54,024 nucleotides of DNA from a virus (lineage: Duplodnaviria > Caudoviricetes), in IMG/VR virus record IMGVR_UViG_3300027741_000087, positions 1-54,024 of that record. One strand, given 5' to 3'. A program made the translations under genes and the position numbers. The notes below the pieces were generated by a model. The model was given only the letters and a program-made list of their open reading frames with translations. It searched no databases and was not told the DNA's origin. Positions 5,771-54,018 of the stretch are shown piece by piece. Each line of letters opens with the position of its first letter. Position 1 is the first letter of the stretch.

Positions 5771-5804
5771 GTGAAAGCTTGTGATTATTTATCATAAGAA
5801 GCTT

Positions 5805-7739: not shown

Positions 7740-7742
7740 ATA

Positions 7743-8570
7743 CTATTTTATTAACGAGTTATATAAATCTACATCATTAGCGTAGAACGCTTGTAGTTTA
7801 GATATTTGCTCGTTTGTTAATGCTGGTTTCGAATCTGGTGATGACAGGTTAATAGTAGGTAGCGATGAAAGACCTAAAGCTGTAGCAAGAGCGGGTAAAT
7901 CTCTATTAAAAGCAAAATAATTTACCTTCTCTACATCTTTGATAACAAGTGTTTGTGGTCTGAAGTGAAGATCGAGAGCTTGTGGATCTTGAACTATAAT
8001 CCAGTCAATTAGATCGGATAAGTTTGAATCCTGTGGTACCCCGTGTTTATTAGATGTATAAGCTGACAGAAAACGATCAATAGGATCTCTTATAACCGCG
8101 TAACAATCACCAGACGGGGTACCAGTCATTTGAAGTAATGTTCTATTCGGGTTAGAGAGACTATTTGTAGGTATACTATAAAGCTCTGTTAAGATGGTCG
8201 AACTAATAGAGCTAGATGCATTTTTATAAATCATAGCCCAATATGTTCCATTAGGTAAAGCAACCCAATTTGATTCCCAGCTATATAGAGAAGGGTTAAA
8301 AGAAGTGCCTTCCTGTTTTGGAGGGATAAAGGCATCTAGATTTGAATCATAAGTGAATCCGATTCCAGCATAATTTCCACGAAAGCCTTTTGTCCAAGTA
8401 GGTAACCTATCTTCACTAACACGCATGCCCCTTAAAGTGTTATAACTGGTTTGCTTAAGCGTATATCCATATAAAGCCGATAATTCGTCTTCTCTATTAT
8501 TCCAAGAATCATCAACAGGGAATACACCTGTAACGGTATTATTTTCATCAAGTTGTGCGAAGTTTGCCAT
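7743..8570 (-). CDS. Paralog of 6118..6891: small phage domain plus sulfotransferase domain
   Basis: MANFAQLDENN..QTSYNT..RGNYAGIGFTYD; KNASSSI, IRDPIDRFLSAY, HFRPQ. Confidence 0.7.
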   Translation of the reverse strand: MANFAQLDENNTVTGVFPVDDSWNNREDELSALYGYTLKQTSYNTLRGMRVSEDRLPTWTKGFRGNYAGIGFTYDSNLDAFIPPKQEGTSFNPSLYSWESNWVALPNGTYWAMIYKNASSSISSTILTELYSIPTNSLSNPNRTLLQMTGTPSGDCYAVIRDPIDRFLSAYTSNKHGVPQDSNLSDLIDWIIVQDPQALDLHFRPQTLVIKDVEKVNYFAFNRDLPALATALGLSSLPTINLSSPDSKPALTNEQISKLQAFYANDVDLYNSLIK

Positions 8571-30900: not shown

Positions 30901-30992
30901 TGGTAGAGCGTGAGGGATTCGAACCCCCGGTACCTTTAAAGGGTACGATTGTTTAGTAAACAATTTCTTTAAACCAACTCAGACAACGCTCC
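30901..30992 (-). tRNA. Ser-type class II tRNA with ACU anticodon
   Basis: GGAGCGT/ACGCTCT, ATTGT-TTACTAA-ACAAT, long arm GTACC-CTTTAAA-GGTAC, canonical T-arm, ACCA. Confidence 0.8.
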
Positions 30993-31020: not shown

Positions 31021-31604
31021 GCCCCAGGTGCTCAATCCAGAGATTTTAGTAAACTTTATTTAACCTCGATACTAATATTGTGTACCTCCGGTTTCACAGT
31101 TGGGACCTTAACTCGCAAAAGCCCGTCTGTGTATGTTGATGAAATGTTCTTAACGTCCGTATTATCATTAAGAGTGAAGGACAACTGTCCCTTTCTCTTG
31201 CTGATACCCTTACGATGGAAGACAACTGTCTCATCATGTTCGACCTCTTCCTTATCAACCGCGATCACGAGCTTACCCTCCTTGACCGATACGTTGATAT
31301 TATCCTTCCCAACACCAGCCAATGCTACTTCGATGTAGTAGGTGACTGGATTACCGTCTGGGTCGGTTTCAGATACGATGTTATAAGGATAGACAGCATT
31401 TGGTACGTCAAATGCTTTGTCGAAGTCCTTAAAGACATCACTTAGCCATGTTTCGTTAAACAGTGCCGGGAGATGGCTAAATCCCAAGCCCTGGGCAGGA
31501 ACAAGCCTGCCGACTGTGTATGGTGTTATTTGTGTTGTCATATGTGTTCTCCTTTATTAAGCGAGTTAATATGTTTGCTTTAGTCTCGGTTTGAGCACCT
31601 GAGC
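31021..31604. repeat. Imperfect ~33-bp inverted repeats flanking hsp20 (31021-31054 and 31573-31604)
   Basis: CAGGTGCTCAA downstream versus TTGAGCACCTG upstream, with similarity extending on both sides. Confidence 0.75.
31056..31541 (-). CDS. hsp20: Small heat-shock protein (Hsp20/IbpA family)
   Basis: YPYNI, IEVALAG, HRKGISKR, YTDGLL motifs; AAGGAG Shine-Dalgarno; TATAAATA at 31610..31617. Confidence 0.9.
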   Translation of the reverse strand: MTTQITPYTVGRLVPAQGLGFSHLPALFNETWLSDVFKDFDKAFDVPNAVYPYNIVSETDPDGNPVTYYIEVALAGVGKDNINVSVKEGKLVIAVDKEEVEHDETVVFHRKGISKRKGQLSFTLNDNTDVKNISSTYTDGLLRVKVPTVKPEVHNISIEVK

Positions 31605-31628: not shown

Positions 31629-32315
31629 TTAAAAATCAATATCCTTTTTATATTTTTTAAAAAATGCTTTTAATAAAATCGTTACATCGGTTACACTACA
31701 GAGCTCTGTTTTATTGAATTTAGCTTCAGAGTGTATTGTATCAGCTCCCGTTGTTAAATATGCTTGAATTTCATCCTTAAGTGTTTGCTTACAATATCCA
31801 AGATCGAGTAATACTTTTGATATTTTTTTATAAGCTGTAGGCTTGATTTTATTAATAATATGATTTACCCCATCTCTGTATGTTTTATCTAAACAATATA
31901 GCCCATGACATACTTCATGGTAGATAGTGCTTTTTTCAGCACCACCGCATGCAATTAGATAATAGAGCTCGTTTGTCTTTTCAGATATTGTATCATTAAT
32001 ATCCATGATCGTAAGATCATATTCGTTTATATCCATTAGACGATGTTTATCACTGTAATAAAGATTCTTAATAATATTTCCAGGTATATTAAAACCACAC
32101 CAATGCTCTGGGTATAAAAAACTCTCTTCTTTTCTCTTTTTAACGTAAGTTTTCATTAGATCAAGAAGCCTAAAATGCTTTCCTCGAATTTCCTTATAAG
32201 GAGACTCGTAGAATTCTTGAACTCTACAAAACGTCATTGCTAGGTCATATCTATCTTTTATAGTACATAGATATATTCCAGGGTATATCTTTTTAAGTTT
32301 GTATTTGATATTCAT
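31629..32315 (-). CDS. Conserved phage hypothetical protein with HExxH
   Basis: TFCRVQEFYESP, W.GFNIP, YHEVCHG, DEIQAY; start MNIKY because the longer call overlaps tRNA-Glu. Confidence 0.65.
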   Translation of the reverse strand: MNIKYKLKKIYPGIYLCTIKDRYDLAMTFCRVQEFYESPYKEIRGKHFRLLDLMKTYVKKRKEESFLYPEHWCGFNIPGNIIKNLYYSDKHRLMDINEYDLTIMDINDTISEKTNELYYLIACGGAEKSTIYHEVCHGLYCLDKTYRDGVNHIINKIKPTAYKKISKVLLDLGYCKQTLKDEIQAYLTTGADTIHSEAKFNKTELCSVTDVTILLKAFFKKYKKDIDF

Positions 32316-32326
32316 TTTAAAAACAG

Positions 32327-32398
32327 CGACCCTATGCAGAATTGAACTGCAGTTCTGCGGATGAAAACCGCATGTCTTAACCACTAGACGATAGGGCC
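32327..32398 (-). tRNA. tRNA-Glu(UUC)
   Basis: GGCCCTA/TAGGGTC, TGCGG-TTTTCAT-CCGCA. Confidence 0.85.
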
Positions 32399-32451
32399 AT
32401 TTAACACTCTGTATCATTACAATATATAGGCTATTTAATTCTATGCAAGAA

Positions 32452-33153: not shown

Positions 33154-34251
33154 TTATTTGATTAAAAAAGTAAAGATAGCTGCTGTTGAGAGTAAAAGCA
33201 AGACCCAAGTACATAGCGTTGAATAATACGTCCAGAGGCTTGTACCAAAGTACCGCTTACCAATAAGAACACACTCATGGAGGGGTGAAATAAGATAACC
33301 GGCATAATCAAGAGCAAAGAACCAGAGAAGATACTCCTTACCGAAAATTGTACTCATAAGAACGGTAAGGGCGGCGAACTTACCATCCGAACCCATACTA
33401 TAGGATGCAATAAACGTGATAATACTAATAACAATGAACCCGACTGATGTATGCATTGATACACCGAGATTCTTTACTGAGGATTCAATCCATTCATGAT
33501 GCTCTTGCATGTAATCTGATAAAAAGAATACAATACCGATAATCCAAATTGTATTCCAATTAATATAACTATTAAGCTTCTTAAGGTTGAAGTTCTTGGT
33601 AAGAACGAGATAATAAGACATAAGCGCTCCAAAAACTGTAAAAACAGCTAATGGTCCTTCACCGCCTAGAAGGATATACCCAACAATAGCTAAAAGAAAA
33701 GGAACGACATTCTTAAAGAAGCCACCGAGATTAAACTTAGGCTTCTCGACAATTTCAACTTCCTCTTCTTTAACGTTGAACCAAATATAATAACCAATGA
33801 AAAGAGCTGAAACAGCGATTAACGGCCAGATCATTCTAAGCCATGCTGTATAACCAATACTGAAAGCGGCCATCGGTAGAATAACGGGCTTCTCTAACGG
33901 CGACCACATATAGAAGTGATGAGCGGTTAAGAAGTCTACAATACCAAGCTTTTTTCTACTATCGGAATTTTCTTCTTCATGATCAATACAGTTACAGTTT
34001 GATGTCGCCGTATCGAGAATACCGGCAGAAACGGTTGCTCTTCCTTCAATTGGAAGGATACCACTGACAAAGGAAAGCAAAGAAATAACCACGCGGTTAC
34101 TCTTAAACTTTGATTTAAGATAGCCGTAGATATCCTGGAAGATACCGTGTTCCTTAATAGTTCCGGATACAATCATGATTGCAATGAGTACGAACAGATA
34201 TATCTCGTCTTCTAGATATGACCAGTTGACCCAGTCCAGTATATGTTGCAT
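33154..34251 (-). CDS. Ion-transporter-superfamily (CitMHS/SLC13/DUF401-like) permease
   Basis: About 10 or more hydrophobic segments, SGILPI.GR, GYLISPLH; start MQHILDW because the longer call overlaps tRNA-Trp. Confidence 0.7.
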   Translation of the reverse strand: MQHILDWVNWSYLEDEIYLFVLIAIMIVSGTIKEHGIFQDIYGYLKSKFKSNRVVISLLSFVSGILPIEGRATVSAGILDTATSNCNCIDHEEENSDSRKKLGIVDFLTAHHFYMWSPLEKPVILPMAAFSIGYTAWLRMIWPLIAVSALFIGYYIWFNVKEEEVEIVEKPKFNLGGFFKNVVPFLLAIVGYILLGGEGPLAVFTVFGALMSYYLVLTKNFNLKKLNSYINWNTIWIIGIVFFLSDYMQEHHEWIESSVKNLGVSMHTSVGFIVISIITFIASYSMGSDGKFAALTVLMSTIFGKEYLLWFFALDYAGYLISPLHECVLIGKRYFGTSLWTYYSTLCTWVLLLLSTAAIFTFLIK

Positions 34252-34298
34252 AAGATTATATTTTATATGCTCAAAAAAAAAAAATCCAACTAGAAAAA

Positions 34299-34463: not shown

Positions 34464-34604
34464 TTATATCAAACCAAGACTTTTTCTACCGTTTCCTTTG
34501 TTACGGCCTTTATAATGGTCTGATTGTGAATCACAATTATGGCATATAAGTCTGAGGTTATCAAGCTTATTATTATCGGCACGACCGTTTTTATGATCGA
34601 GCTC
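34464..34604 (-). pseudogene. C-terminal remnant of an HNH homing endonuclease
   Basis: ELDHKNG...NNKLDNLRLICHNCDSQ..Y.GRN with no native N-terminus. Confidence 0.8.
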
Positions 34605-34663
34605 CCGTGCCTTGCGGTAATAGATCCTAACTCTATCGTAGCTGCCAATTACACCACACGAGC
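34597..34663 (-). pseudogene. Truncated tRNA-Leu(UAG) lacking its 3' end
   Basis: GCTCGTG-TGGTGTAATTGGC, ATAGA-GTTAGGA-TCTAT, variable arm, then fusion to HNH sequence within the T-loop. Confidence 0.75.
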
Positions 34664-34725
34664 ATGAATTATAAGGCATGTACAAGCTAAAAGTTAAAAA
34701 AAACAATAGATTATCACTTCTAGGA

Positions 34726-34733
34726 TATAAATA
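34726..34733 (+). promoter_or_regulatory. T4-like late promoter TATAAATA upstream of the LCIB-like pair
   Basis: Exact motif 22 nt before ATG 34756. Confidence 0.6.
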
Positions 34734-34755
34734 CTTAGAGTATTCCTTTAATATA

Positions 34756-35835
34756 ATGAGTGGCAATAGACAAAACTACCTTAGCGATTTGCAACGACAA
34801 GATTTCTCTCGTTCCTCTCGCTTTCCACAGCCCCTACCGTATTACGGACCATATAGCGGTATGAGCTTTAACGAACGCCGCAATAAGCTCGTCCATGAAG
34901 CTATGGTACAATCAGAGATCGAGATGCGATTAATGATGGAGGCTGAAGAGCGTGCGCTTAATGAGCACAGTCAAAGTAGCTTGAGTACAGATGGCGGCGC
35001 GCCACCGGAACAGCAAATCTATTTGAGTGTTGTACGTAATACGTATCCTACAGCTCTTTTATCAGAAACTTTTGGTACAAAGACATTAAACTTTATTCAA
35101 TCAACTTTCGGTTATACACCTTCAAACGTATTAGTAGCTGAGTCAATTTGCTCTGATGACATCAATGCACCTGTTTTTAGTGGTAACCTCGGACAATTCC
35201 CAGATTCAATGACTTTAGCTCTTAATCCGTTCATGGCCGGTGGTATTGGCGGTTACCCTCATACAGGTGTTACAGGGTTAGCGGCTTGGATAAGTCACGT
35301 AACATCAGGTGGTGCGTTATTCCTCTTTAGTGCCCCTCACATCGGTGTATCAACTGACGGTACAATTGGTGCTGTAAAGAGAAGAGGTCAAAACGGTAGA
35401 TTGAATACCTCTTGCGGTGCTGTTAGAGCTGCTATTGATACTGTCTTAGGTGGTTGGACACCAAGCTTGAGCGGTACTTCACCAATCTTCACCGGTGCTT
35501 CTGTATATAATGATTACCAGCAAAATACTTTAACAGGTATTTTATATAATAATCGCGCCACTCTTTCCACCACACCTACCGACAAACAAATGACCGTTGC
35601 GACAGAAATGATTCGTGTTGCTTCTTACAATTGGATTAATGCAAACCTCTCTACAGCATATGCTGCAGTCTCAGGCGGTGTCGGTACACCGGATGTCTAT
35701 TTTGTTACAGGTACAATGATTAATGTCGATGATGGTTACAGTGGATTAACACAAGTAAATACCTTCCAGAAGTTCAGCGCTAACACCGGCTGGACGGACT
35801 ACACTAATAATTACCTCGCAGCTATAACACCATAA
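34756..35835 (+). CDS. LCIB/LCIC-like (theta-class) carbonic anhydrase domain protein with N-terminal extension
   Basis: SICSDD, F.AGG.GGYP..G.TG..A..SHV..GG, APHIGV..DG.IG.V.R.GQ, SCGA (Cys/His/Cys Zn ligands). Confidence 0.8.
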   Translation: MSGNRQNYLSDLQRQDFSRSSRFPQPLPYYGPYSGMSFNERRNKLVHEAMVQSEIEMRLMMEAEERALNEHSQSSLSTDGGAPPEQQIYLSVVRNTYPTALLSETFGTKTLNFIQSTFGYTPSNVLVAESICSDDINAPVFSGNLGQFPDSMTLALNPFMAGGIGGYPHTGVTGLAAWISHVTSGGALFLFSAPHIGVSTDGTIGAVKRRGQNGRLNTSCGAVRAAIDTVLGGWTPSLSGTSPIFTGASVYNDYQQNTLTGILYNNRATLSTTPTDKQMTVATEMIRVASYNWINANLSTAYAAVSGGVGTPDVYFVTGTMINVDDGYSGLTQVNTFQKFSANTGWTDYTNNYLAAITP

Positions 35836-35839
35836 TTTT

Positions 35840-36733
35840 ATGCCTATCTCGCAATCTACATATACATCTTTAGTAACAGCTAAGAGCGCTAGCTGGAGTT
35901 CGAATTTTTATAGTCTCTCTACAGCTAAACTTGCAAGTACCTTCGCTAACTACACAGTGAACTTTATTCAAACCCTTTCCGGTTTTTCAGCTTCTAATGT
36001 GCTTATGGCAACATCGATTTGCGCTGATGATGTCTGTGCTCTTTCAGCTTCAGGTAATATAGGTCAATTTCCTCGCGAAGCAATGAAATTTCTCGGGCCC
36101 TTTAGTTCGTCAGGGCTAGCGGGGTATCCGCATTATGGTATTACAGGTGTTTTTGCTTGGGCTACGCATATTACTGATGGTGGCGCGCTCTTTATTCTTG
36201 TTGCTCCTCACATTGGTGTAGCTTCAACTGGAGCTGTAGGTCAGATATATCGCAGAGGCCAAACAGCTCCTTCTAGTACATGCGGTGCTGTCAGTGTGGC
36301 TGTATCAGCTGTAGTAGCTGCAGCGACCCTTCCTCTCTCTAGTTCAAATAATAATAGCTGGTCTGGTGCTAGTTGGCATCCTAACGATTTCCAGCAATGG
36401 ACCTTAACAAAGGAGTTATATCCCTTACGTACTACGTTGTCGAGCGCCACTACAGCAAATCAAATGCTTATTGCCACGAAGACAATTCTCGATGCAGCAT
36501 CAGCTGTAGTTACAAATGTAGTAGTACCGTCTGCTTATAACGCTTATTTCACTGGCGGTTCTACAGTTACAAGTAGAACTACTCCAATCTTCACTTGCTT
36601 TGGTACATTCGTTAATGTTGATGATGGATACCAGGCTTATATAGCTCCCATCGCGTTCAAGAGATATGATGGAGTAACAGGTTGGGTTGATTATACCGCT
36701 AGCTACTTGAGCGGTTTGAATAGCTTAACCTAG
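35840..36733 (+). CDS. Second LCIB-like (theta-class) carbonic anhydrase domain protein
   Basis: SICADD, GLAGYPH.G.TG, HITDGG, APHIGV, RRGQ, STCGA. Confidence 0.8.
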   Translation: MPISQSTYTSLVTAKSASWSSNFYSLSTAKLASTFANYTVNFIQTLSGFSASNVLMATSICADDVCALSASGNIGQFPREAMKFLGPFSSSGLAGYPHYGITGVFAWATHITDGGALFILVAPHIGVASTGAVGQIYRRGQTAPSSTCGAVSVAVSAVVAAATLPLSSSNNNSWSGASWHPNDFQQWTLTKELYPLRTTLSSATTANQMLIATKTILDAASAVVTNVVVPSAYNAYFTGGSTVTSRTTPIFTCFGTFVNVDDGYQAYIAPIAFKRYDGVTGWVDYTASYLSGLNSLT

Positions 36734-36773
36734 AGTGACAATGCGGTGCTCTAACCAACTGAGCTACAATCCC
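36734..36773 (-). pseudogene. 5' half of tRNA-Asp(GUC)
   Basis: GGGATTG-TAGCTCAGTTGGTTAGAGC-A-CCGCA-TTGTCAC-T, then an abrupt end at the TAG of the converging gene. Confidence 0.8.
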
Positions 36774-36778
36774 TAAAA

Positions 36779-37222
36779 TGGTGGAGGTGTCGGCATACGA
36801 TAGCCGAGTCCACATCTTTTTCAACTTACACAATCTACATGTTTTGGTAAATTTGAGATTTGATTGACTACAGGCTCTCATGGCTTACCAACCTATCTTT
36901 TTTAGTCTACCTGACATGGTGAAGAGTCCATGCCCACCCTCTACGTTTATTTTACGAGTGTCGTAGATACCACTCTAACCTATTGCGATTCACCGAAAGA
37001 GTTAATAGGATTACTTTCGGTTCTTATGCTGCGAGAAGGTACTCTTCCTCAACACCACCGAGAAACTCGGCAGCATTGTTGAAGATGTATTCAGCTTCAG
37101 CTAAGATAGCATCAGTATTATCTTCTGCATTTATCTTTTAGTCTATTTTTAAAGTGTACCGTCTTAGACCAACCACTACATGCAGTGTAGTATCCAACTA
37201 TGTGTCGAATCCTTTCACCCCC
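36779..37222 (-). ncRNA. ssrA: tmRNA, tag ORF 37128..37024
   Basis: 5' GGGGGTGAAAGGATTCGAC, 3' CACCTCCACCA with G3:U pair; ATAAAT-GCA resume context; tag ends LLAA-stop. Confidence 0.92.
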
Positions 37223-43970: not shown

Positions 43971-46676
43971 ATGTCTGATAACGCACGCTTTCATAATAAG
44001 CTCCACAGAAGAAACCACCATACTAAAGCAACGGATGGTTTTCCTGATTCAGCTACTGATCCAATCGCTTCTTATACGGAGCCGTTTCAAGGTGATTTCG
44101 TTGTTAATGGTAATCTTAGTGCGTCAGGTAGTATTTTTAGCGTCTACTACACATTATCAAATATTAATATTGCTTCACCTATTCTGTCAGCGAATGTTGG
44201 CTTTAAGCCTACAAATTCTCTTATTGTAGTACTTTCAGGTATTAGTTACGCGATTCCGCTTACATACGTTGGTAGTTCAACATTTAATAATGGTGCATCA
44301 GGTGTGAGCTCGCTCTCGTCCTACGTAACGTACCTTGGACCTGTAAGTGTTGTTGGAGCGATTTCAGGTAGAGATGCCAATAATTGGAATAGTGTCTATT
44401 CTGTTGTTACCGCTAATAGTGCTTTTTGGAGTAACGCATACAGTCAGTTAACTGGCGGTATTACTACTAATTGGAATACTGCGTATACGCAAGGAACCGC
44501 ATACGCTAACACCTCATCAACGTTTATACCTTATGTATCAGCGAATACACTCTACGCACCGCTTTCCTCAAAAGCATATACGATAAATTTAAGCGGTAAT
44601 ATCGTACCGGTTTCAGGTAATAATGTAAGTCTCTCTGGTTATTATGCCGTAGTAGCAGGGGGTAGCTTTAACAGTATTGTTAGTAGTAGTTATTCAAATA
44701 TTAACGGCGGCTTTGTTAATTCTTTAACCGGGAATTATACAAGTATTGTCGGTGGTAGTGGTAACTGTGTTAATGGTAACTATTCTGTAGTCGCAGGCGG
44801 TGTTGGTAATTACGCCTCTTGTAGATATTCTAATATAGGTGGTGGTTATTATAACGTAGCTTTAGGCAATTATTCAAGTATTAACGGTGGTTTTTGTAAC
44901 AACGTTACCGGGGATTATTCAAATATAGTAGGTGGTTGTACTAATGCCGTATCAAATGACTATTCTTATGTAGTAGGTGGTAGTGGTAACGTCGTGCAGA
45001 GTAGAAAATCTGGAATTATTAACGGGTTTGATAATACATTGTCCGCGACTAACTCCCTTATTGCCGGCTGTAATAACACTGCTGTTAATTTAAATAACGT
45101 ATTTGTATTTGGCTCAAATATTACAGCAACAACAAGCGATTACACGTACGTAAATAATATTTCTGCTCAAAGCTTTATAAGATCATCTAGTGCGTATCTT
45201 GATTTTATTGATGTGAGCCCGGGCAATATCGGCACAACTCTTCCAAACACCCGTGGCCAGTTCTTTTCTAATGTTAACTCGTATTCGCAAGTTAATCATC
45301 AAAACATTAATAGCGGTACAGGTGCCACGACGGATTTTATTGCTACAAACGACGCCGGTAGTGATGTTTCTGGTTATATAGATGTCGGTATTAATAGTAG
45401 TACATATAATATGTCAGCATTTTCTGTGACAGGACCGAATGATGCGTATCTCTATACCGCCGGTGCCGGTAATTTAGTTGTTGGTACATCTGGTATCGGT
45501 AATATTGTGTTCTTTACAAGTAACACTTTATCAGCTAACGAGGTAGTAAGAATTACAAACAGTGGTAATGTTGGCATAGGTATTTCACGACCCGGTAGTA
45601 AGCTCACAGTTACTGGTGATATATCTGCAAGTGGTGCGCTCTACGGTAATAACGCTGTTTATATACGTAGCGTTAATCAAAGTATTGCACCAGTAAGAGG
45701 CAATAACACGGCATCCGGTGTTTATTCTTCTATAGGTGGCGGCTGTGGTAACAGTGTTGTCGGTAATTACTCCGGTATTTCAAGTGGTAATAGTAATGTA
45801 GCCACGGTAAGTGGTGTGTTTATTGGCGGTGGTGTGTTAAATACCGGGTCCGGTGTTTATAGTACAATTACTGGTGGTTGTCTTAATAACGCATCTTGTG
45901 CTTATAGTAATATTGTCGGTGGTGTATCTAACTGTACACAACAAATATATGCGTTTATCGGTGGTGGAAACACGAACACTGCGTCTAATTCCGGATCTGT
46001 AGTTACTGGTGGCTCGTACAACTCAGCATCAGGTGTATATAACGTAATAGGTGGCGGTACGAATAATAATAACTGTGGTGATTATTCAATAATAGTAGGT
46101 GGTAAAAATAATACTATATACCCGTCTGCATCGAGCTCTGTTATATTAGGATCTGATATATCTGCAAATTTACCAAATACCACATACGTATGTAATCTTG
46201 TTTCCTGCGGTGATGTTTGTGGTAGTATGCTATACGGTGACGGCTCAAATCTATCTAATATTGTACAAGTATGCCAATTACCGTATTACGTATATCACCA
46301 CATACCGAGTGCGATATACCCGGTTAGTGGTTCGAATTTAATGGCAAATAACGGTTGTTATTCGACGATCGCGGGTGGTGCGAATAATTCGCTATCTGGT
46401 AGCTTTTCATTTATCGCCGCCGGGTCAGGTAATAATACAAACTCCTTCAATAATACGTTTATTTTAGGATCTAACCTACAAGCTTCTCGTGCAAACTATA
46501 CATATGTTAACAATATTAGTTCCAAGGGTACAGTAGCTGGTAGTGTAGTTGCTGCACAAACTTTCTATATTAGTAATTCAATTGAAGCTACAGTTTCCGG
46601 CCCTGTAACGAAGAAATTCCCAGTATATGATCAAAACGGTAACTTACTGGGCTACATACCGATTTACGCATCGTAG
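43971..46676 (+). CDS. Fibre/virion structural protein with GG-x-x-N repeats
   Basis: 14-aa periodic repeats; GNVGIG.S.P..KL.V.G motif; C-terminal YD..GN..GYIP.Y shared with 47682..52391. Confidence 0.75.
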   Translation: MSDNARFHNKLHRRNHHTKATDGFPDSATDPIASYTEPFQGDFVVNGNLSASGSIFSVYYTLSNINIASPILSANVGFKPTNSLIVVLSGISYAIPLTYVGSSTFNNGASGVSSLSSYVTYLGPVSVVGAISGRDANNWNSVYSVVTANSAFWSNAYSQLTGGITTNWNTAYTQGTAYANTSSTFIPYVSANTLYAPLSSKAYTINLSGNIVPVSGNNVSLSGYYAVVAGGSFNSIVSSSYSNINGGFVNSLTGNYTSIVGGSGNCVNGNYSVVAGGVGNYASCRYSNIGGGYYNVALGNYSSINGGFCNNVTGDYSNIVGGCTNAVSNDYSYVVGGSGNVVQSRKSGIINGFDNTLSATNSLIAGCNNTAVNLNNVFVFGSNITATTSDYTYVNNISAQSFIRSSSAYLDFIDVSPGNIGTTLPNTRGQFFSNVNSYSQVNHQNINSGTGATTDFIATNDAGSDVSGYIDVGINSSTYNMSAFSVTGPNDAYLYTAGAGNLVVGTSGIGNIVFFTSNTLSANEVVRITNSGNVGIGISRPGSKLTVTGDISASGALYGNNAVYIRSVNQSIAPVRGNNTASGVYSSIGGGCGNSVVGNYSGISSGNSNVATVSGVFIGGGVLNTGSGVYSTITGGCLNNASCAYSNIVGGVSNCTQQIYAFIGGGNTNTASNSGSVVTGGSYNSASGVYNVIGGGTNNNNCGDYSIIVGGKNNTIYPSASSSVILGSDISANLPNTTYVCNLVSCGDVCGSMLYGDGSNLSNIVQVCQLPYYVYHHIPSAIYPVSGSNLMANNGCYSTIAGGANNSLSGSFSFIAAGSGNNTNSFNNTFILGSNLQASRANYTYVNNISSKGTVAGSVVAAQTFYISNSIEATVSGPVTKKFPVYDQNGNLLGYIPIYAS

Positions 46677-47681: not shown

Positions 47682-50600
47682 ATGGCCAATAATATTGCAG
47701 CAACACTCTCACTCAACGTATCGGCTATTTCAGCTATTTGTACCGGGCCTCGAGGCTCAATAATATTTACCGGCTACGGTGTACCAACAACAGCCGGTGT
47801 AAATAACGATTATTATATTGATTTAAATACCACAATTCTTTATAACAAAATTAATTTTGCCTGGCGACCACTTTTTACATTAACTCGATCGATAACAAGC
47901 GCTGGTTTTACAGTTTTTAATAGTATTTCTACAAATGTTAGTATAGTACCGTCATACGGTAGCTCTAATACGCTAAGTGGACCAAACCTCGTTATTTTAG
48001 GCGGTAATAACAATAGCTTATCTGGTGGTAATTCTTTTATTATAGGTACGAATATAACAGCTGCTGCGTCGGGTTTTGTATTTACGAATAATCTATCAAG
48101 TACAGGCGTAATATACAGTAGTAGTGGTAATAGTAATGTATGGAGCGGTGTATATACTACTACTAATACATCATCGGCTAATTGGAATAATGCTTATACA
48201 GCTACTAGTACGTTTTCTGGTGACTGGAACAATGCTTATACAGCATTAACAGCATCATCTGCTAACTGGAATAATGCTTATACAGCATTAACAAGTACAT
48301 CTGCTAACTGGAACAATGCTTATACAGCTACTAGTACGTTTTCTGGTGACTGGAACAATGCTTATACAGCATTAACAGCATCATCTGCTAACTGGAATAA
48401 TGCTTATACAGCTACCAGTACGTTTTCCGGTGACTGGAACAATGCTTATACAGCATTAACAGCATCATCTGCTAACTGGAATAATGCCTATACAGCTACC
48501 AGTACGTTTTCCGGTGACTGGAACAGTTCCTATACAGCATTAACAAGTACTTCTGCTAATTGGAACAGTGCTTATACTACTCTGACCGCTACATCGGCAA
48601 AGTGGAATAATGCTTATACGCTATCAACAGGATTATCCTCTTTAAGCTCTAATTGGCAATCTGTATACACGACAACAAATACATCTTCCGCTAACTGGAC
48701 TAGTGCATATACAACACTAACTGCAACAAGTGCTTCTTGGATTACCAAACCTACCGCAGATACACTTTACGCACCTCTCTCAACTCGTGCTTATATCCAG
48801 ATTACAAGCACGAAATCTATTATCCCGGTAGCGGGATCTAATACAGCATCAGGTGTGTATTCTGTTGTTGGTGGTGGTACGAATAATCAGGTAACAGACG
48901 CATGCGCAGCTGTATTTGGTGGTAGTAATAATAAAGCTCTGAGCGGCTATACTATTGTCGGCGGTGGTAGCTACAACTGCGCAACATCGGGATATGCATC
49001 TATCGTCGGTGGTTGCTTTAACAAAGCATTATCGGTGGGAGCGAGTGTTGTGGGCGGAGGAAGCAATACAGCATCTGGATACTATTCATTTATAGGTGGT
49101 GGTAAGAACAACACCGCCTCGGGTAATTTTGCATCTATTCTTGGCGGTACAAACAATGCTACTAACGGATTATCGAGTGTGTTTATTCTCGGCTCTAATA
49201 TTACCGCAACCGCGCCTAATTACACATATGTTAATAACATAACATCGCTCGGAGGCGTCTACGACGCTGGCGGTAACTCTACTAATTGGAACAGCGTATA
49301 TACTACTACTAATACATCATCTGCTAATTGGAATAACGCTTATACATCACTTACTGCATCATCGGCTAATTGGAACAGCGTATATACTACTACTAAAACC
49401 TTATCTACTAATTGGAATAACGCTTATACGGCATTAACAAGCACGTCAGCTAACTGGAATAACGCTTATACAGCTACTAATACATCATCTGCTAATTGGA
49501 ACAGTGCCTATACAGCATTGACAAGTACATCGGCTAATTGGAACAGTGCCTATACGGCATTGACAAGTACATCGGCTAATTGGAATAACGCTTATACAGC
49601 TACTAATACATCATCTGCTAATTGGAACAGTGCCTATACGGCATTAACAAGCACATCGGCTAATTGGAATAATGCTTATACAGCTACTAATACATCATCA
49701 GCTAACTGGAATAACGCTTATACAGCATTGACAAGTACATCGGCTAACTGGAATAATGCTTATACAGCATTGACAAGTACATCGGCTAATTGGAACAGCG
49801 TATATACTACTACTAAAACCTTATCTACTAATTGGAACAGTGCCTATACGGCATTGACAAGTACATCGGCTAACTGGAACAATGCTTATACAGCTACTAA
49901 TACATCATCTGCTAATTGGAATAACGCTTATACATCACTTACTGCATCATCAGCTAACTGGAACAATGCTTATACCACACTTACGGCATCATCGGCTAGT
50001 TGGAAAGGTACATACACCGTCGTAAGTGCAAATAGCGCTATTTGGGGCACGGGAGGAACTCCTGTTAATATATCTTTAGTAGCAGCTACTAGTGGTAGCT
50101 GGAACAGCACTTATACAACAGTTAATTCAAATAGCGCTAGTTGGGGTGCTGGTGGTTCCCCTTATTGTTCTACAGGATTTCATTCAATTCAACCAATTAT
50201 AGGTTGCAATACTGCTTCAGGAAATTATTCAGCTATTGTAAATGGCTCAGCTACAATACCAGCTGGTACAAACTCTTGTTACTATATAGGATATCAAGGT
50301 GCTGATGGGTGTCTGTATAGTGATAATACATGTTCAAGTTATATTGGTCAAAATTATCCAGGAATAAACGAAGGTGCTCTGTATTGCTGTCAGTCGTTTA
50401 CATATAATGTCGATATCCAAGGTAATAAAGCCTGTGGATCAAATAGCTTTATAGGTAATGGACAGAGTGCTTGTGGTACAAATAGCTGCTATTATTGTGT
50501 TGTAAACAACAATACAGCGAGTGCTTATTGTCAAGGCGGTGGATGTGTTGGTACATGGGGTTCAGTAAATGTTGTTACTGGATGTTTTTCGAGTATATTA

Positions 50601-52391
50601 AATGGTACAGGAAATACAGCTTCTGGAGGTTATTCTACTGTAGCTGGTGGTAGTCATAATACGGCTTCTGGGTATATTTCTAATGTAGCTGGCGGTTGTT
50701 GCAATATAGCTTACGGATCATATTCCCACGTAGGTGGGGGGTGTCTAAATTGTGCTTGTGATAGCGCTTCTGTTGTTGGTGGCCTCTGTAATTGTGCCTT
50801 TGGTGCAACCAGCTTTATAGGTGGTGGAGCAGGTAATTGTATATTTTGTGATTTTGATTCTTCTATTGTATCTGGATGTCAAAATAACGTCTATGGATGT
50901 AGAAGTATAGTTGGTGCAGGTGTTGGAAACCTAGTATGTGGAAACTGCTCTGGTATATTTTCTGGTCAAGTTAATTCAGCTTCTGGAGGTTTTTCAAATG
51001 TAGCTGGTGGTTGGTGTAACATAGCTTCTGGAGGTTATTCTACTGTAGCTGGCGGTCAGGGCAATATAGCTTCTGGGTATGTTTCAAATGTAGCTGGTGG
51101 TCATGGTAATATAGCTTGCGGGAATTGTTCTACAGTAGCTGGTGGTCAGGGTAATACAGCTTCTGGAGCCTTTTCTAATGTAGCTGGTGGTGCTATTAAT
51201 ATAGCTTCTGGCTTCCAATCAAATATAGCTGGTGGTAATGACCATACAGCTTCTGGTATCCGATCCAATGTAGCTGGTGGTTGGTGTAACACAGCTTCTG
51301 GATATTATTCAAATATAGCTGGTGGTAAATTTAATTCTGCTAGCGGATACGCTTCGAATGTAGCCGGCGGTGGTGGTAATACAGCTTCCGGAGTGGCTTC
51401 AAATGTAGCTGGTGGAGGAACCAATACAGCTTCTGGAAATTATTCAGCAATTCTCGGTGGTCATGATAATAATACAAACAACCGATGCAATACCTTTATC
51501 TTGGGCTCTAATATAACAGCTTTAAGTGCAAATTATACCTATGCAAATAATTTAAGTTCTCAGTGTAATATACGTGCAATGCGTTTTTACGGTGATGGGT
51601 CTAATTTAACTAACGTAGTAGCAGTTTCTACTATAAATATCCTCTATAGTACTGGTTTTCCGTATTCAAGTGGTTCGGTTGTATATTCTATTAAACCTAC
51701 TCTAGGAGGCAATACAGCTTCTTGCCTTTTTTCTAATGTAGCTGGTGGTTACGGTAATACAGCTTCAGGAAATTATGCAACCATAGCTGGTGGTTACGGT
51801 AATACAGCTTTAGGAGATTATGCAACCATAGCTGGTGGTTGGTATAATACAGTTTGCGGAATGGCTTCAAATGTAGCTGGTGGTGCTCATCAGCTAGTTT
51901 CTGGAAATGACTCCAATATAGCTGGTGGTGTTTGTAATACAGCTTCTGGATGGAGTTCTGCTATAGCTGGGGGTTGGTATAATACAGCTTCTGGGGATAG
52001 ATCAAATGTAGCTGGTGGTTACGGTAATACAGCTTCAGGAAATTATGCAACCATAGCTGGTGGTAGAAGTAATAATGCTTCTAATACCTATGCTAATGTA
52101 GCCGGTGGTTACGGTAATACAGCTTCGGGAAATTATTCAGCAATTCTCGGTGGTCATAATAATAATACAAACAACCGATGCAATACCTTTATCTTAGGCT
52201 CTAATATAACAGCTTTAAGTGCAAATTATACCTATGCAAATAATTTAAGTTCTCAGTGTAATATAACTAGTCAATGCTATTCGTTTGCTGGTAGTACTGG
52301 AGCTGCTGGTTCACTAGGAACATTTAGCTGCAGGGTTTCAGCTTATGATGGATTAGGTAACTATATTGGATATATTCCTTTGTACAAATAA
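47682..52391 (+). CDS. Long fibre protein with 11-aa W-N-x-A-Y-T repeats and Cys-rich 14-aa beta-solenoid repeats
   Basis: 1569-aa ORF after ATAAATA. Confidence 0.8.
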   Translation: MANNIAATLSLNVSAISAICTGPRGSIIFTGYGVPTTAGVNNDYYIDLNTTILYNKINFAWRPLFTLTRSITSAGFTVFNSISTNVSIVPSYGSSNTLSGPNLVILGGNNNSLSGGNSFIIGTNITAAASGFVFTNNLSSTGVIYSSSGNSNVWSGVYTTTNTSSANWNNAYTATSTFSGDWNNAYTALTASSANWNNAYTALTSTSANWNNAYTATSTFSGDWNNAYTALTASSANWNNAYTATSTFSGDWNNAYTALTASSANWNNAYTATSTFSGDWNSSYTALTSTSANWNSAYTTLTATSAKWNNAYTLSTGLSSLSSNWQSVYTTTNTSSANWTSAYTTLTATSASWITKPTADTLYAPLSTRAYIQITSTKSIIPVAGSNTASGVYSVVGGGTNNQVTDACAAVFGGSNNKALSGYTIVGGGSYNCATSGYASIVGGCFNKALSVGASVVGGGSNTASGYYSFIGGGKNNTASGNFASILGGTNNATNGLSSVFILGSNITATAPNYTYVNNITSLGGVYDAGGNSTNWNSVYTTTNTSSANWNNAYTSLTASSANWNSVYTTTKTLSTNWNNAYTALTSTSANWNNAYTATNTSSANWNSAYTALTSTSANWNSAYTALTSTSANWNNAYTATNTSSANWNSAYTALTSTSANWNNAYTATNTSSANWNNAYTALTSTSANWNNAYTALTSTSANWNSVYTTTKTLSTNWNSAYTALTSTSANWNNAYTATNTSSANWNNAYTSLTASSANWNNAYTTLTASSASWKGTYTVVSANSAIWGTGGTPVNISLVAATSGSWNSTYTTVNSNSASWGAGGSPYCSTGFHSIQPIIGCNTASGNYSAIVNGSATIPAGTNSCYYIGYQGADGCLYSDNTCSSYIGQNYPGINEGALYCCQSFTYNVDIQGNKACGSNSFIGNGQSACGTNSCYYCVVNNNTASAYCQGGGCVGTWGSVNVVTGCFSSILNGTGNTASGGYSTVAGGSHNTASGYISNVAGGCCNIAYGSYSHVGGGCLNCACDSASVVGGLCNCAFGATSFIGGGAGNCIFCDFDSSIVSGCQNNVYGCRSIVGAGVGNLVCGNCSGIFSGQVNSASGGFSNVAGGWCNIASGGYSTVAGGQGNIASGYVSNVAGGHGNIACGNCSTVAGGQGNTASGAFSNVAGGAINIASGFQSNIAGGNDHTASGIRSNVAGGWCNTASGYYSNIAGGKFNSASGYASNVAGGGGNTASGVASNVAGGGTNTASGNYSAILGGHDNNTNNRCNTFILGSNITALSANYTYANNLSSQCNIRAMRFYGDGSNLTNVVAVSTINILYSTGFPYSSGSVVYSIKPTLGGNTASCLFSNVAGGYGNTASGNYATIAGGYGNTALGDYATIAGGWYNTVCGMASNVAGGAHQLVSGNDSNIAGGVCNTASGWSSAIAGGWYNTASGDRSNVAGGYGNTASGNYATIAGGRSNNASNTYANVAGGYGNTASGNYSAILGGHNNNTNNRCNTFILGSNITALSANYTYANNLSSQCNITSQCYSFAGSTGAAGSLGTFSCRVSAYDGLGNYIGYIPLYK
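48140..48740 (+). repeat. In-frame 33-bp tandem repeat block 1
   Basis: TGGAA(C/T)AATGCTTATACAGC recurs every 33 bp (SANWNNAYTAL / FSGDWNNAYTA). Confidence 0.9.
49280..50005 (+). repeat. In-frame 33-bp tandem repeat block 2 (about 22 units)
   Basis: GCTAA(C/T)TGGAA(C/T)A(A/G) every 33 bp. Confidence 0.9.
50970..52170 (+). repeat. In-frame 42-bp repeats (SNVAGG..NTASG.Y) plus ~150-bp internal duplication (about 51423-51572 and 52116-52264)
   Basis: TAGCTGGTGGT...AATACAGCTTC recurrence. Confidence 0.85.
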
Positions 52392-52530: not shown

Positions 52531-54018
52531 GTGAGATCTCGTACTGTAACGCTATCTAATAATCAGTTTAATGTTCTTCCACAGACGCTTGACGGTAATA
52601 CTTTTTTTTCTGTTGGTGATGGTGGTCGGCCAAATTCTAATTTTGTATACCCACTAACAGCTGATAGTAGTGTTTTTACCGCTACTACGGGTACATTTAT
52701 TTACCCAGTTACAGCTGATGATACATTTTTTACACCGTGGACGTATAAAGGTAGAGTTGAAGAAATAATTGTTGGTCAAACCCTTGATCCTATTAAAGGA
52801 CCGTGTACAATTTTATTTTCACCATCCGGCTTACAAGCGACGTACTCTTCTATTTCAAAAATTATATACGATTTTGGTGACGGTACATCACAGGTTGTTT
52901 CGCGAATTATTAATCCAAAATATACTATCGGTAGTCCTACCTCAGCAGGAGATCCGAATACTATTAACGTCACACACGATTATTTTCCCATTAGCTCTAC
53001 AAGCGTAACAGTCTTTAATCCAACTGTTACAGTTTTTTATTCCAATCTTGTTAAAAGTGTTATAACTTTAACAATTTCCGCCACACCGCTTTCAATTTAT
53101 GATCTTGAAGATGTTCATTTAATTAATACTGTACAAGAAACAAATAAAACAACGACGCAAAATATTCTCGAAATTGCAGCTCCTAATTATCTTACAGTAG
53201 GGCGTATTATTAGCGCAGTTGATACATCATATAACCGCGTATCTTCCTTTAACCCAAATACTGCTTTATCAGGTTATAAGCATAATTTAATTTTATGGCT
53301 TGATGCTGCTGACGGACCAACACTACAAAAAAATAGTAGTAATAATGTGCTTAAATGGCAAGATAAAAGCTCGTATGCAACAGACTTCTATTCCGGAAAT
53401 TTTTCGCCCTTATATCAAACCGAGCGTGAAACAAAATCAGGAAGACGTGCTGTTTATATAAAAAATAACGCCACTCTTTATGCACCGGCGTGCTCGGCGT
53501 TTGACTCTATTTTTACCGGTCCTAATACATCTACCCAATCGTACGGTTATTCGGTGTTTTTTGTTGGCCATCTCAATAAAGTATCGGGTACAGTGTTTTC
53601 TTATGATATAAATGATGGCGCTGCAGCATATATACCAAATCTTAATATTTCTTTTGATACCACGCAATCATTAACAGTCGAGCAGGGTCATGTTCCTGGT
53701 GATGTACAGAGTATTTACCAGCCTACGACTATTAGTGGTATTTCCTACAACCTATCTGGCTATAGTTTGTATTCTGTAACGCTGAGTAGTGATAACAACT
53801 CTTGGCAGAACGGTATGAACGACACCGGCGCACTTAGCGCTTATGCAATCATACAAGCTGATACACTCTTAGTCCGGAGAAAGCAACAAAACTATAAATT
53901 TAATATTGATCAAAATTATGCATCTAATAGTTTAAAATCAATTATACAAATCGGAGCAAGTAATGCGTATCCGGGTAGAAATCTCGTTAATATGGAAATT
54001 TCAAATCCTTGTGTTTAA
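52531..54018 (+). CDS. Structural protein with PKD-like and LamG/ConA-like domains (may be truncated at the window edge)
   Basis: YDFGDGT; LILWLDAAD...V..W.DKS. Confidence 0.65.
   Translation: MRSRTVTLSNNQFNVLPQTLDGNTFFSVGDGGRPNSNFVYPLTADSSVFTATTGTFIYPVTADDTFFTPWTYKGRVEEIIVGQTLDPIKGPCTILFSPSGLQATYSSISKIIYDFGDGTSQVVSRIINPKYTIGSPTSAGDPNTINVTHDYFPISSTSVTVFNPTVTVFYSNLVKSVITLTISATPLSIYDLEDVHLINTVQETNKTTTQNILEIAAPNYLTVGRIISAVDTSYNRVSSFNPNTALSGYKHNLILWLDAADGPTLQKNSSNNVLKWQDKSSYATDFYSGNFSPLYQTERETKSGRRAVYIKNNATLYAPACSAFDSIFTGPNTSTQSYGYSVFFVGHLNKVSGTVFSYDINDGAAAYIPNLNISFDTTQSLTVEQGHVPGDVQSIYQPTTISGISYNLSGYSLYSVTLSSDNNSWQNGMNDTGALSAYAIIQADTLLVRRKQQNYKFNIDQNYASNSLKSIIQIGASNAYPGRNLVNMEISNPCV

Follow-up and report, generated by a model that had tools for sequence, protein, structure and literature searches.

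A tandem gene pair in a T4-like phage

What role could two adjacent genes of an algal CO2-handling family play in a tailed phage? The LCIB/theta family is a component of algal CO2-concentrating mechanisms. The stretch of DNA analyzed here (54,024 nucleotides, referred to as the window) accounts for about 25% of a T4-like phage genome of roughly 216 kb. The two genes correspond to open reading frames on the + strand, 34678..35835 (385 aa) and 35840..36733 (297 aa), that are separated by 4 nt and encode LCIB-family proteins, here copy 1 and copy 2. They share 44% identity across 267 residues (E 5e-61), and the original observation of two neighboring paralogs hence stands. Copy 1 most likely starts at the ATG at 34756, because TATAAATA is located 22 nt before that codon. 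The features discussed below are:

34726..34733, + strand: TATAAATA, T4-type late-promoter-like motif (consensus match), upstream of the copy 1 ATG
34756..35835, + strand: copy 1, LCIB-family, 359 aa (385 aa if read from the open-frame start at 34678)
34756..35019, + strand: N-terminal leader of copy 1, ~88 aa, charged, absent from copy 2
35840..36733, + strand: copy 2, LCIB-family, leaderless, 297 aa
36020..36283, + strand: predicted zinc-ligand stretch of copy 2, containing C61, D63, H110, H124, R138 and C148
36020-22, 36209-11 and 36281-83, + strand: predicted zinc ligands C61, H124 and C148 of copy 2 (residue alignment)
36026-28, + strand: Asp D63 of copy 2 (residue alignment)
36167-69 and 36251-53, + strand: interface residues H110 and R138 of copy 2 (alignment and predicted dimer)

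The tandem arrangement is conserved. It was found at eight of 81 loci, and the leader-bearing copy is always upstream and the leaderless copy always downstream. Upstream-copy orthologues of copy 1 are present in L001, L002, L005, L006, L007, L064 and L073. The leader itself, predicted to be charged and about 85 residues long, spans about 85-88 residues before Y89, the first family-wide conserved position; charged residues account for 25% of its first 75 residues vs 12% of the domain. It is homologous to the upstream-copy leader in L001, L002, L064, L073 and P0012, while the leader in L005 and L007 is a different one, ~120 aa long. Cleavage by a prohead protease, or capsid targeting, was considered as a function for the leader of copy 1. 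Since no L/I-x-E site conserved across the aligned leaders was found, this reading was set aside and is kept here as a possibility.

Family membership and the predicted zinc site

The Pfam profile LCIB_C_CA (PF18599) matches both copies, copy 1 with E 6.1e-34 and copy 2 with E 8.3e-33, at scores of 117.7 and 114 bits relative to a curated cut-off of 25 bits, and the match was repeated on the genome. Together with the predicted fold, which matches those of PtLCIB4, LCIB and LCIC (see below), this places the pair in the LCIB/theta family, as was suggested from the motifs. The motifs C-x-D, PHIG and CGA are indeed present in both copies. The loop GG..G.P..G.TG, also claimed for both, is exact in copy 1 only (GGIGGYPHTGVTG); the corresponding sequence in copy 2, SGLAGYPHYGITG, begins with SG.

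Classical beta-class carbonic anhydrases (Pro_CA) are characterized by the motifs C-x-D-x-R and H-x-x-C. The Pro_CA profile gave no match to either copy at E up to 1. Moreover, copy 2 lacks an Arg two residues after the Asp (V at position 65 and A at position 67), and 24 residues separate H124 and C148.

The active-site set comprises C132, D134, D135, H181, H195, R209 and C220 in copy 1, and C61, D63, D64, H110, H124, R138 and C148 in copy 2. Alignment of copy 2 with PtLCIB4 of the diatom Phaeodactylum tricornutum (phmmer, E 2.6e-19) brings the C, D, H, H and C columns into register, such that C61, D63, H124 and C148 align with C61, D63, H117 and C141 of the PtLCIB4 chain. The identities of the zinc ligands in the published PtLCIB4 structure were reportedly given by Jin et al. 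in 2016. Residues C61, D63, H110, H124, R138 and C148 are conserved in every one of the 40 viral domains compared, and residue 62 is Ser in 33 and Ala in seven of them, likewise Ser/Ala in PtLCIB4. The ligand columns thus conform to the predicted Cys/His/Cys zinc site. That the three side chains also converge in space is suggested by the matching columns in combination with the fold match. In addition, H110 aligns with the His that is mutated in the PtLCIB4 H88A entry. In Chlamydomonas LCIB, His162 and Arg194 are described as conserved and positioned at the intersubunit cleft (PMC5876011), and H110 and R138 are probably their equivalents.

An intact site is no proof of catalysis, because LCIB and LCIC of Chlamydomonas possess this site too and are reported to be inactive in vitro (PMC8825250, PMC5876011). 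This raises the possibility that the phage has recruited the LCIB fold as a noncatalytic building block or decoration of the particle, with zinc bound for stability only. The structural-module context, composition and end modules of the viral proteins (discussed below) would fit such a role as well. However, zinc that serves only stability would not demand an invariant Asp, interface His and Arg, and these residues are preserved in all 40 domains from very different phage lineages. We therefore regard a purely structural recruit as improbable. A noncatalytic LCIB/LCIC barrier is said to have been proposed in algae.

A further possibility is that the fold and metal site act on another small substrate, e.g., carbonyl sulfide or carbon disulfide, on which known hydrolases with the beta-class fold act. 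Directly after Cys-x-Asp, the viral clade carries the specific loop N73-I-G75-Q76-x-P78, which is largely gapped elsewhere in the family and is located in the predicted dimer interface. This loop could be taken to indicate a changed specificity. No positive evidence points to another substrate, however, and the nearest solved relatives are carbonic anhydrases; hence, we consider this the least probable of the readings discussed here.

Predicted fold and dimer

The AF2 model of copy 2, built from 129 sequences, has a pLDDT of 93.8 and a pTM of 0.92; an earlier model from eight sequences was weaker at the active-site loops (pLDDT 72.8). In Foldseek the model matches PtLCIB4 (5b5y_A; E 5.6e-17, TM 0.84, rmsd 3.0), and further matches are 6kfs, 5k5w and 5b5x. 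Classical beta-class enzymes rank behind the LCIB family, at E about 1e-3.

Prediction of the copy 1-copy 2 complex gave an ipSAE of 0.91, the best of three controls reaching 0.00; of 80 solved complexes, 58 attain the mark applied, as do two of 110 mismatched pairs. Runs share at least 73% of the contacts, with a partner pLDDT of at least 88. In the predicted interface, H181 of copy 1 contacts D63 and D64 of copy 2, and H110, R138 and the NIGQxP loop of copy 2 are also positioned there. The suggested hetero-oligomer is in this sense compatible with the prediction, but the pass may reflect likeness to solved homodimers of the PtLCIB4 type, and the method does not separate a heterodimer from homodimers. 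Formation of a heterodimer is accordingly a prediction of the models.

A phage-specific clade and its cellular relatives

The family had been described as unfamiliar in phages. This holds for annotated resources: tblastn against 50,697 GenBank phages gave no match, PHROGs had no family matched by the ten members scanned (structural families included), and in BFVD there was no significant match, giant-virus carbonic anhydrases being the best at E 0.04. Nor were members found in cultured phages. In unannotated viral metagenome contigs, on the other hand, the family is common, with 164 stretches in IMG/VR, and its ESM Atlas clusters are labeled mostly Viruses/Uroviricota. The pair belongs to a coherent phage-specific clade that annotated phage resources have missed. 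In the tree, the viral proteins form one branch, whose stem is long (1.09 changes per column) and has full support.

The sister group consists of Bacteroidota LCIB-like proteins, among which the viral clade is not nested. Their genes are chromosomal, and a Bestrophin_2 channel gene is positioned directly upstream in 60 of 79 loci. It is plausible that these bestrophin-linked genes are the source of the phage genes. A search for close cellular copies of window-type proteins yielded 73 pattern-matched stretches in genome contigs, none of which was confirmed. In one viral lineage, the tail sheath and its counterpart in a Flavobacterium phage are 54% identical.

The bestrophin operon favors a true bicarbonate/CO2 role for the family. 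It also brings in a cytoplasmic alternative, in which the pair is an auxiliary metabolic gene encoding a heterodimeric carbonic anhydrase that works unpackaged in the infected cell, either supplying bicarbonate for carboxylations in nucleotide or lipid synthesis or shifting pH and inorganic carbon. The intact residue set and fold, together with nearest cellular relatives that are chromosomal genes in a bestrophin operon, agree with this alternative. Against it, the five related viral records (three complete) have no bestrophin partner.

The same five records, three of which are complete, also lack psbA. A cyanophage reading, in which the enzyme collapses the carbon-concentrating mechanism of the host, was therefore considered unsupported. 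Compared with the portals of cyanophages, that of one lineage shows only about 32-33% identity.

Probable late expression

The motif upstream of copy 1 was originally taken as a late promoter. In the T4-like relatives G001, G002 and G003, late-type motifs are found in front of structural genes: TATAAATA precedes the ATG of the tail sheath gene by 8 nt in G001 and that of the portal gene by 17 nt in G002, and CATAAATA is found ahead of the portal and sheath genes in G003. The position ahead of copy 1 thus supports the claim, but the motif is not over-represented across the window, where it has 14 matches (10.7 +/- 3.0 expected), a count attained by 20 of 100 shuffled sequences. For ten of the 14, a start codon follows no more than 90 nt downstream. 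Sigma-70-type promoters around the pair are at chance level (nine found vs 9.0 expected), and the one terminator-like site detected there is inside copy 1. Late timing of the pair is, on the basis of these motifs, probable.

Gene context, composition and possible particle association

The alternative that the fold has been recruited as a virion protein was raised together with the low-charge, S/T/A-rich composition of the products. The composition is as described: copy 2 contains 7.7% D+E+K+R and 37% S+T+A. Its charge corresponds to the fourth percentile among 728 other ORFs and groups with the giant fibre-like ORFs of the window (3-10%), while every recognizable enzyme in the window has 21-34%. 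The shift is common to the whole viral clade (67 domains), where charged residues amount to 12.2%, compared with 20.7% and 19.4% among other family members. Both observations speak against a cytoplasmic helper enzyme.

Moreover, the N- or C-terminal modules differ between viral lineages, and one module is common to neighboring PT-rich proteins. Such variable, anchor-like ends are hard to square with a soluble helper. The N-terminus of P0015 presumably resembles a tail-fibre motif; a tblastn search of GenBank phages with residues 1-86 of this protein returned a single weak match that lacks annotation (E 0.01), and the tail-fibre-like assignment was discarded as evidence.

With respect to genomic context, a co-oriented gene for a major head, portal, sheath, tube, adaptor or hub protein is present at 49 of 81 loci and in 18 of 37 clusters (90% identity), and is directly adjacent at 21 loci and in six of the 37 lineages; these counts are lower bounds and possibly biased, because only 20 neighbor clusters were annotated. 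The placement within head/tail modules in about half of the lineages again argues against the cytoplasmic alternative. At the tandem loci, the situation is the reverse. None of the eight, the window included, has an annotated structural neighbor, and in the complete relatives the portal and sheath genes are tens of kb away. The neighbors of the pair in the window, as at the remaining tandem loci, are instead metabolic and replication genes and tRNAs (RNR, NT5C-like, 2OG-Fe oxygenase, ExoX-like), which is what an auxiliary metabolic gene would predict. Genes inserted into late operons, moreover, need not encode particle proteins. A link to the neighboring DUF401/TIGR00529 membrane protein (33154-34257, - strand) was rejected, as the two are adjacent at no other locus.

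Collectively, context, composition and modular ends lead us to rank recruitment to the virion ahead of a plain cytoplasmic auxiliary gene, which we consider rather unlikely. The virion idea is thereby recast, with the catalytic site being retained instead of lost.

A model for the pair

Our leading, and still tentative, explanation is that the pair encodes a late, probably particle-associated heterodimeric LCIB/theta zinc carbonic anhydrase with a leader on copy 1; we give it slightly less than even chances. In this model, the two genes would provide the subunits of an enzyme with the beta-class fold. Each subunit would bind zinc through Cys, His and Cys, with the Asp beside the first Cys, and each active site would be completed by the conserved His and Arg that the partner contributes across the interface. 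The zinc-bound hydroxide would then interconvert CO2 and bicarbonate. One T4-type late promoter would ensure that both paralogs are made together late in infection and form the heterodimer. The most conjectural steps concern the leader and the particle: the leader of copy 1 might attach or target the dimer, with copy 2 riding along, and the product might be carried on or in the phage particle rather than acting as a cytoplasmic helper. Association with the particle is proposed because of the composition, the variable end modules and the frequent place among head and tail genes.

More broadly, a whole clade of tailed phages that have not been cultured, among them T4-like jumbo phages and relatives of Flavobacterium phages, might bear a working carbonic anhydrase in the particle. 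The enzyme, either exposed on the surface or packaged in the head and delivered along with the DNA, would shift the balance of CO2, bicarbonate and pH at or in the host cell when the phage attacks; the jumbo lineage would have it as a heterodimer with one leader-bearing subunit. We regard this wider scenario as doubtful. If true, a carbonic anhydrase borne on a virus particle would be without precedent, and the algal CO2-concentrating fold would have gained a new use; provided that the enzyme is active, inorganic-carbon and pH chemistry would join the infection process itself. Should the particle reading be right, these compact, low-charge proteins would also have to work outside cells, which could make them of interest for CO2 capture. 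Irrespective of the outcome, the phage branch of the LCIB/theta family keeps every catalytic residue and has the composition, the modular ends and often the address of particle proteins. The two genes are small and easily expressed, which makes the idea directly testable.

Comparison with known systems

The best match in both sequence and structure is the theta-class PtLCIB4/PtLCIB3 of P. tricornutum (PDB 5b5y). The phage copies share with these proteins the Cys/Asp/His/His/Arg/Cys columns, Ser or Ala after the first Cys and a single-domain and, by prediction, dimeric design. They are, however, only about 24-26% identical to them and have about half the charged residues. Features of the phage copies that set them apart from the diatom proteins are an additional N-terminal helix and hairpin, the NIGQxP loop and a conserved NVDDGY segment in the C-terminal sheet, and they show neither plastid targeting nor a link to photosynthesis (no psbA in the five related records). 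PtLCIB4/PtLCIB3 are reported to be constitutively active (PMC9614477).

The Chlamydomonas LCIB-LCIC system (PDB 5k5w, 5b5x) likewise consists of two paralogs of the family with the same zinc site, and these are reported to co-assemble. Its proteins are far more distant from the phage copies (E 1e-6 to 1e-7, TM 0.69-0.72). The algal complex is reported to be ~350 kDa and inactive in vitro, whereas the phage genes are adjacent in one putative transcription unit and their products are predicted to form a dimer.

Classical beta-class enzymes (E. coli Can/CynT and pea carbonic anhydrase; Pro_CA) belong to the same fold class and use the same kinds of Cys/His/Cys ligands. Their Foldseek matches to the copy 2 model are weak (E 8e-4 and weaker, TM 0.4-0.55), and the 24-residue spacing from the His to the second Cys in the phage proteins contrasts with H-x-x-C in the classical enzymes. 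In the publications consulted, viral carbonic anhydrases are described as alpha, beta or gamma class, with no mention of LCIB/theta.

Finally, the bestrophin-linked LCIB-like proteins of Bacteroidota (~247 aa) are single-domain proteins with the same conserved set as the phage copies. The viral clade is set apart from them by its long stem and its composition, and the Bacteroidota gene follows a Bestrophin_2 channel gene, which the five related phage records lack. This bestrophin-LCIB operon in nonphotosynthetic Bacteroidota mirrors the pairing of a bestrophin bicarbonate channel and a carbonic anhydrase in algae.

Family assignment and active site

By family, the pair is a phage-specific tandem of LCIB-type carbonic anhydrases for which catalysis is predicted, and it appears to have the features of a late protein linked to the particle. 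The original prediction described two adjacent paralogs that keep the family motifs; this description holds, as the two ORFs lie 4 nt apart, share 44% identity across 267 residues and have full residue sets.

Features of the locus in the window
34678..35835, plus strand: copy 1 (upstream paralog), 385 aa as an open frame
35840..36733, plus strand: copy 2 (downstream paralog), 297 aa
34726-34733: TATAAATA motif upstream of copy 1
34464-34679, minus strand: HNH-endonuclease-like short ORF between tRNA-Thr and the pair, 71 aa from an internal Met
Upstream of the pair, minus strand: tRNA-Trp and tRNA-Thr genes
36779-37222, minus strand: full-length tmRNA gene (Rfam RF00023), directly 3′ of copy 2
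33154-34257, minus strand: multi-pass membrane protein of the DUF401/TIGR00529 family (Pfam E 2.6e-13)

Both copies match Pfam LCIB_C_CA (PF18599; cut-off 25), with E 6.1e-34 and 117.7 bits for copy 1 and E 8.3e-33 and 114 bits for copy 2. The best PDB sequence match is PtLCIB4, the LCIB-type carbonic anhydrase of the diatom Phaeodactylum tricornutum.

PDB sequence matches
5b5y, PtLCIB4, E 2.6e-19 (best)
6kfs, LCIB_C_CA protein, E 8.5e-17
9vzj, LCIB_C_CA protein, E 7.6e-15
5k5w, Chlamydomonas LCIB, E 8.7e-07
5b5x, Chlamydomonas LCIC, E 3.5e-06

C61, D63, H110, H124 and C148 of copy 2 align with PtLCIB4 chain positions 61, 63, 103, 117 and 141; position 62 of that chain is the Ser mutated in the deposited S47R variant and position 103 the His mutated in H88A. 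We take the positions aligned to C61/H124/C148, D63 and H110 to be the zinc ligands, the Asp and the catalytic His of the published structure, identities that reportedly originate from the PtLCIB4 structure of Jin et al. 2016. In a 203-domain alignment, C61, D63, D64, H110, H124, R138 and C148 are kept in all 40 viral-locus domains, and position 62 is Ser in 33 and Ala in seven. The structure model of copy 2, built from a 129-sequence alignment (pLDDT 93.8, pTM 0.92), has PtLCIB4 as its Foldseek match (E 5.6e-17, TM 0.84 by target length, rmsd 3.0), followed by 6kfs, LCIB and LCIC, and classical beta-carbonic anhydrases rank after these LCIB-family structures (E 8e-4 and weaker). The three zinc ligands of copy 2 would thus be expected to meet in space. 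Profile, alignment and fold together confirm that the assignment to the LCIB/theta family was right. A review passage (PMC5876011) describes LCIB homologues as beta-carbonic anhydrase-like in fold, zinc motif and active-site architecture, and assigns importance to one His and one Arg in the cleft between subunits. Because Asp, His and Arg are invariant beyond the metal ligands, catalysis seems more likely to have been retained than replaced by a solely structural role.

A phage-specific clade missing from annotated resources

Searching 1.84 billion representative proteins by profile yielded 1064 relatives at E ≤1e-3 and 53 at 1e-30, and a scan of IMG/VR with alignment A2 gave 189 pattern matches, 164 of them encoding a relative, from which 80 loci were retained. 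All 40 viral-locus rows form one clade with 27 context-less metagenome proteins (support 100, stem 1.09), apart from the ~250-aa single-domain and the multi-domain proteins in the tree. Annotated phage resources miss this clade: tblastn with three divergent members against 50,697 GenBank phage records gave no match, none of ten members matched a PHROG family, and BFVD had no match at E ≤1e-3 (best, a Pandoravirus carbonic anhydrase at 0.04). ESM Atlas clusters of 136, 61 and 62 members (69-93% viral labels, mostly Uroviricota) are auto-named LCIB_C_CA; automatic pipelines therefore do detect the domain. Among the publications listed in literature searches, none treats phage LCIB genes, and the one naming the Pfam domain concerns diatoms; two papers on viral carbonic anhydrases describe the enzymes as alpha, beta or gamma or assign them no class, and LCIB/theta is absent from the main text.

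Putative late-promoter motif and surroundings of the pair

The first ATG after the TATAAATA motif, at 34756, follows at a spacing of 22 nt and is therefore the most likely start of copy 1, giving a protein of 359 aa. Within the window, 10 of 14 copies of TATAAATA lie at most 90 nt upstream of a start. The window record is estimated as 25% complete in IMG/VR, hence a genome of ~216 kb. A T4-type portal (phrog_213, E ~1e-100) and tail sheath (phrog_23), both absent from the 54 kb window, are encoded in three related T4-like viral records: G001 (complete, 217 kb), G002 (complete with terminal repeats, 203 kb) and G003. Exact TATAAATA stands 8 nt before the G001 sheath ATG and 17 nt before the G002 portal ATG, and CATAAATA precedes both genes in G003; the remaining two portal/sheath starts of these records have no such motif (exact in 2/6, 4/6 with one change). 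Since the motif lies near window starts and at the relatives' portal and sheath genes, it is a reasonable inference that the pair is transcribed late. The total count of TATAAATA in the window is at chance level.

With minus-strand tRNA genes upstream and a minus-strand tmRNA downstream, the pair is a self-contained plus-strand cassette in a tRNA/tmRNA region. The tmRNA scores 86.4 bits (gathering score 47, E 2e-33) and ends in CCACCA (36779-36784); it is not called by ARAGORN. The HNH-like ORF (...HKNG...N..LICHNCD...) gave no match in a family search; its position beside tRNA-Thr fits a mobile, variable tRNA region. The membrane protein also has an NCBIfam match (E 8.8e-17, far under the NCBIfam cut-off) and a weak CitMHS transporter match, and its true start must be later than listed, because the listed start overlaps tRNA-Trp; its gene is not kept beside LCIB genes at other loci. 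The window holds ten tRNA genes and also ribonucleotide reductase genes.

Several further elements were observed. By eye, the stretch ~36705-36778 resembles a minus-strand tRNA remnant overlapping the last part of copy 2. ARAGORN and Rfam report no tRNA there, and the sole megablast match of the region (46 nt, 91.5% identity, window 36743-36788) is to the terminus of MT835522.1, a phage contig that carries no annotation. ARAGORN reports a tRNA-Ser with the unusual anticodon ACT (30901-30992, minus strand) and a tRNA-Glu (32326-32398, minus strand) within the listed ORF 31629-32417, whose start is therefore probably downstream of the tRNA. A small heat-shock protein (IbpA/IbpB/Hsp20-like; 31056-31541, minus strand) matches at E 1e-9 to 1e-11, under curated cut-offs, and TATAAATA lies 69 nt upstream of its start.

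Particle protein or cytoplasmic enzyme

Across the clade, gene context, composition and modularity favour a particle protein. Neighbours were clustered and 20 representative clusters scanned against PHROGs, counting major head protein, portal, head closure, adaptor, sheath stabiliser, sheath, tube and baseplate hub. A co-oriented structural gene occurs in 49/81 loci (within three genes in 36, adjacent in 21), or, by 90%-identity LCIB clusters, in 18/37 (13/37 and 6/37, respectively), in at least four architectures: after two types of major head protein, after a T4-type portal, and between head-tail adaptor and sheath. The low charge noted in the original prediction is a property of the clade, with a median D+E+K+R of 12.2% (67 domains) vs 20.7% (93) and 19.4% (43) in the rest of the family. 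Window ORFs fall into two composition classes, giant/Gly-rich ORFs with 3-10% charged residues and recognisable enzymes with 21-34%. Copy 2 (7.7%; 4th percentile among 728 other ORFs of viral loci) groups with the former; copy 1 is slightly more charged than that class, at 13.8% for the 385-aa ORF. The giant ORFs (47682-52391, 43971-46676, 8572-10206, 6888-7739, 10214-12067 and 608-5770) have 29-39% S+T+A; one of 1569 aa has a D+E+K+R content of only 3.2%. Gly_rich_2 and/or phrog_2295 is matched by two of these ORFs, which are probably all fibre-like surface proteins; TATAAATA precedes 10214-12067, 12074-14911 and 52531-54018.

N-terminal extensions of 10-120 residues vary from lineage to lineage. 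Two lineage groups begin with a module of ~70 residues that also occurs in small proteins encoded nearby, where it runs on into Pro/Thr-rich linkers. At viral loci L042 and L046 (both 5644-7974) the LCIB domain (~residues 113-386) sits inside a 776-aa protein, flanked by N-terminal (~110 residues) and C-terminal (~390 residues) parts that match no known family, and L082 and protein P0018 have an added C-terminal extension.

The pair itself, however, has surroundings of another kind: tRNAs, the HNH gene, the membrane protein, a 2OG-Fe oxygenase and an NT5C-like nucleotidase. None of the eight tandem loci has an annotated structural neighbour, and tens of kb separate the pair from portal and sheath in both G001 and G002. 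Moreover, most neighbour clusters lie outside the 20 scanned and carry no annotation, and insertion into a late operon does not by itself make a gene structural. On balance, we would place particle association at a little over one half.

Predicted pairing and history of the tandem

The two copies probably form a heterodimer. When the complex was predicted from orthologue alignments of copy 1 (residues 80-359) and copy 2, ipSAE was 0.91 (runs 0.90-0.92) vs 0.00 for the best of three controls; the mark applied is reached by 58/80 solved complexes and 2/110 mismatched pairs. Runs had at least 73% of contacts in common, with partner pLDDT at least 88. The predicted interface comprises the C-x-D-D stretch, the GYPH loop, H110/H181, R138-Q141/R209-Q212 and the DYQQ motif, with copy 1 H181 contacting copy 2 D63 and D64. 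The modelled complex is the dimer expected of the family, in which each partner would contribute to the other's site. Since the structure of a similar homodimer is already solved, the pass reflects likeness rather than mutual preference of the two copies.

Conservation of the tandem is evolutionary evidence independent of the complex prediction. Tandems occur in 8/81 loci (the window, L001, L002, L005, L006, L007, L064 and L073), always with an N-terminal extension on the upstream copy and a downstream copy beginning M-P-I-(S/T)-Q. A FastTree tree places the upstream copies and the downstream copies in distinct groups of a single clade of 33 rows (support 97). This dates the duplication as old, and each copy has kept its full residue set. 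The distinct leader ascribed to copy 1 is real: it is homologous to those of L001, L002, L064, L073 and protein P0012 and absent from downstream copies, and L005 and L007 have a different, longer leader.

Cellular relatives and the bestrophin unit

Window-type patterns gave 73 matches in 185,579 species genomes, none confirmed as a relative; with the sister group (alignment A6), 410 of 443 matches in the same set were confirmed. By title these are mostly Bacteroidota (Chitinophagaceae, Chryseobacterium, Dyadobacter, Pedobacter, Flavobacterium, Cytophagales and others). This phylum is a plausible origin of the phage genes and may also contain the hosts. The sheath of one viral lineage has 54% identity to a Flavobacterium phage sheath. 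Neither a bestrophin gene nor psbA was found in five related viral records. Eighty of the confirmed loci were retained, 79 of them holding an LCIB-like gene (L106 lacks it in the clustering). A ~335-aa Pfam Bestrophin_2 gene (E 3.9e-46) is present in 69 of these 79, directly upstream and co-oriented in 60, at most two genes upstream in 64 and directly downstream in four. The median gap is 15.5 nt, and an Ion_trans_2 channel or Na+/H+ exchanger is often near the unit, upstream. With Bestrophin_2 next to the LCIB-like gene, this arrangement argues that the family has a genuine bicarbonate/CO2 function in bacteria that do not photosynthesise, and the two-gene unit of Bacteroidota is a bacterial counterpart of the algal bestrophin-carbonic anhydrase pairing.
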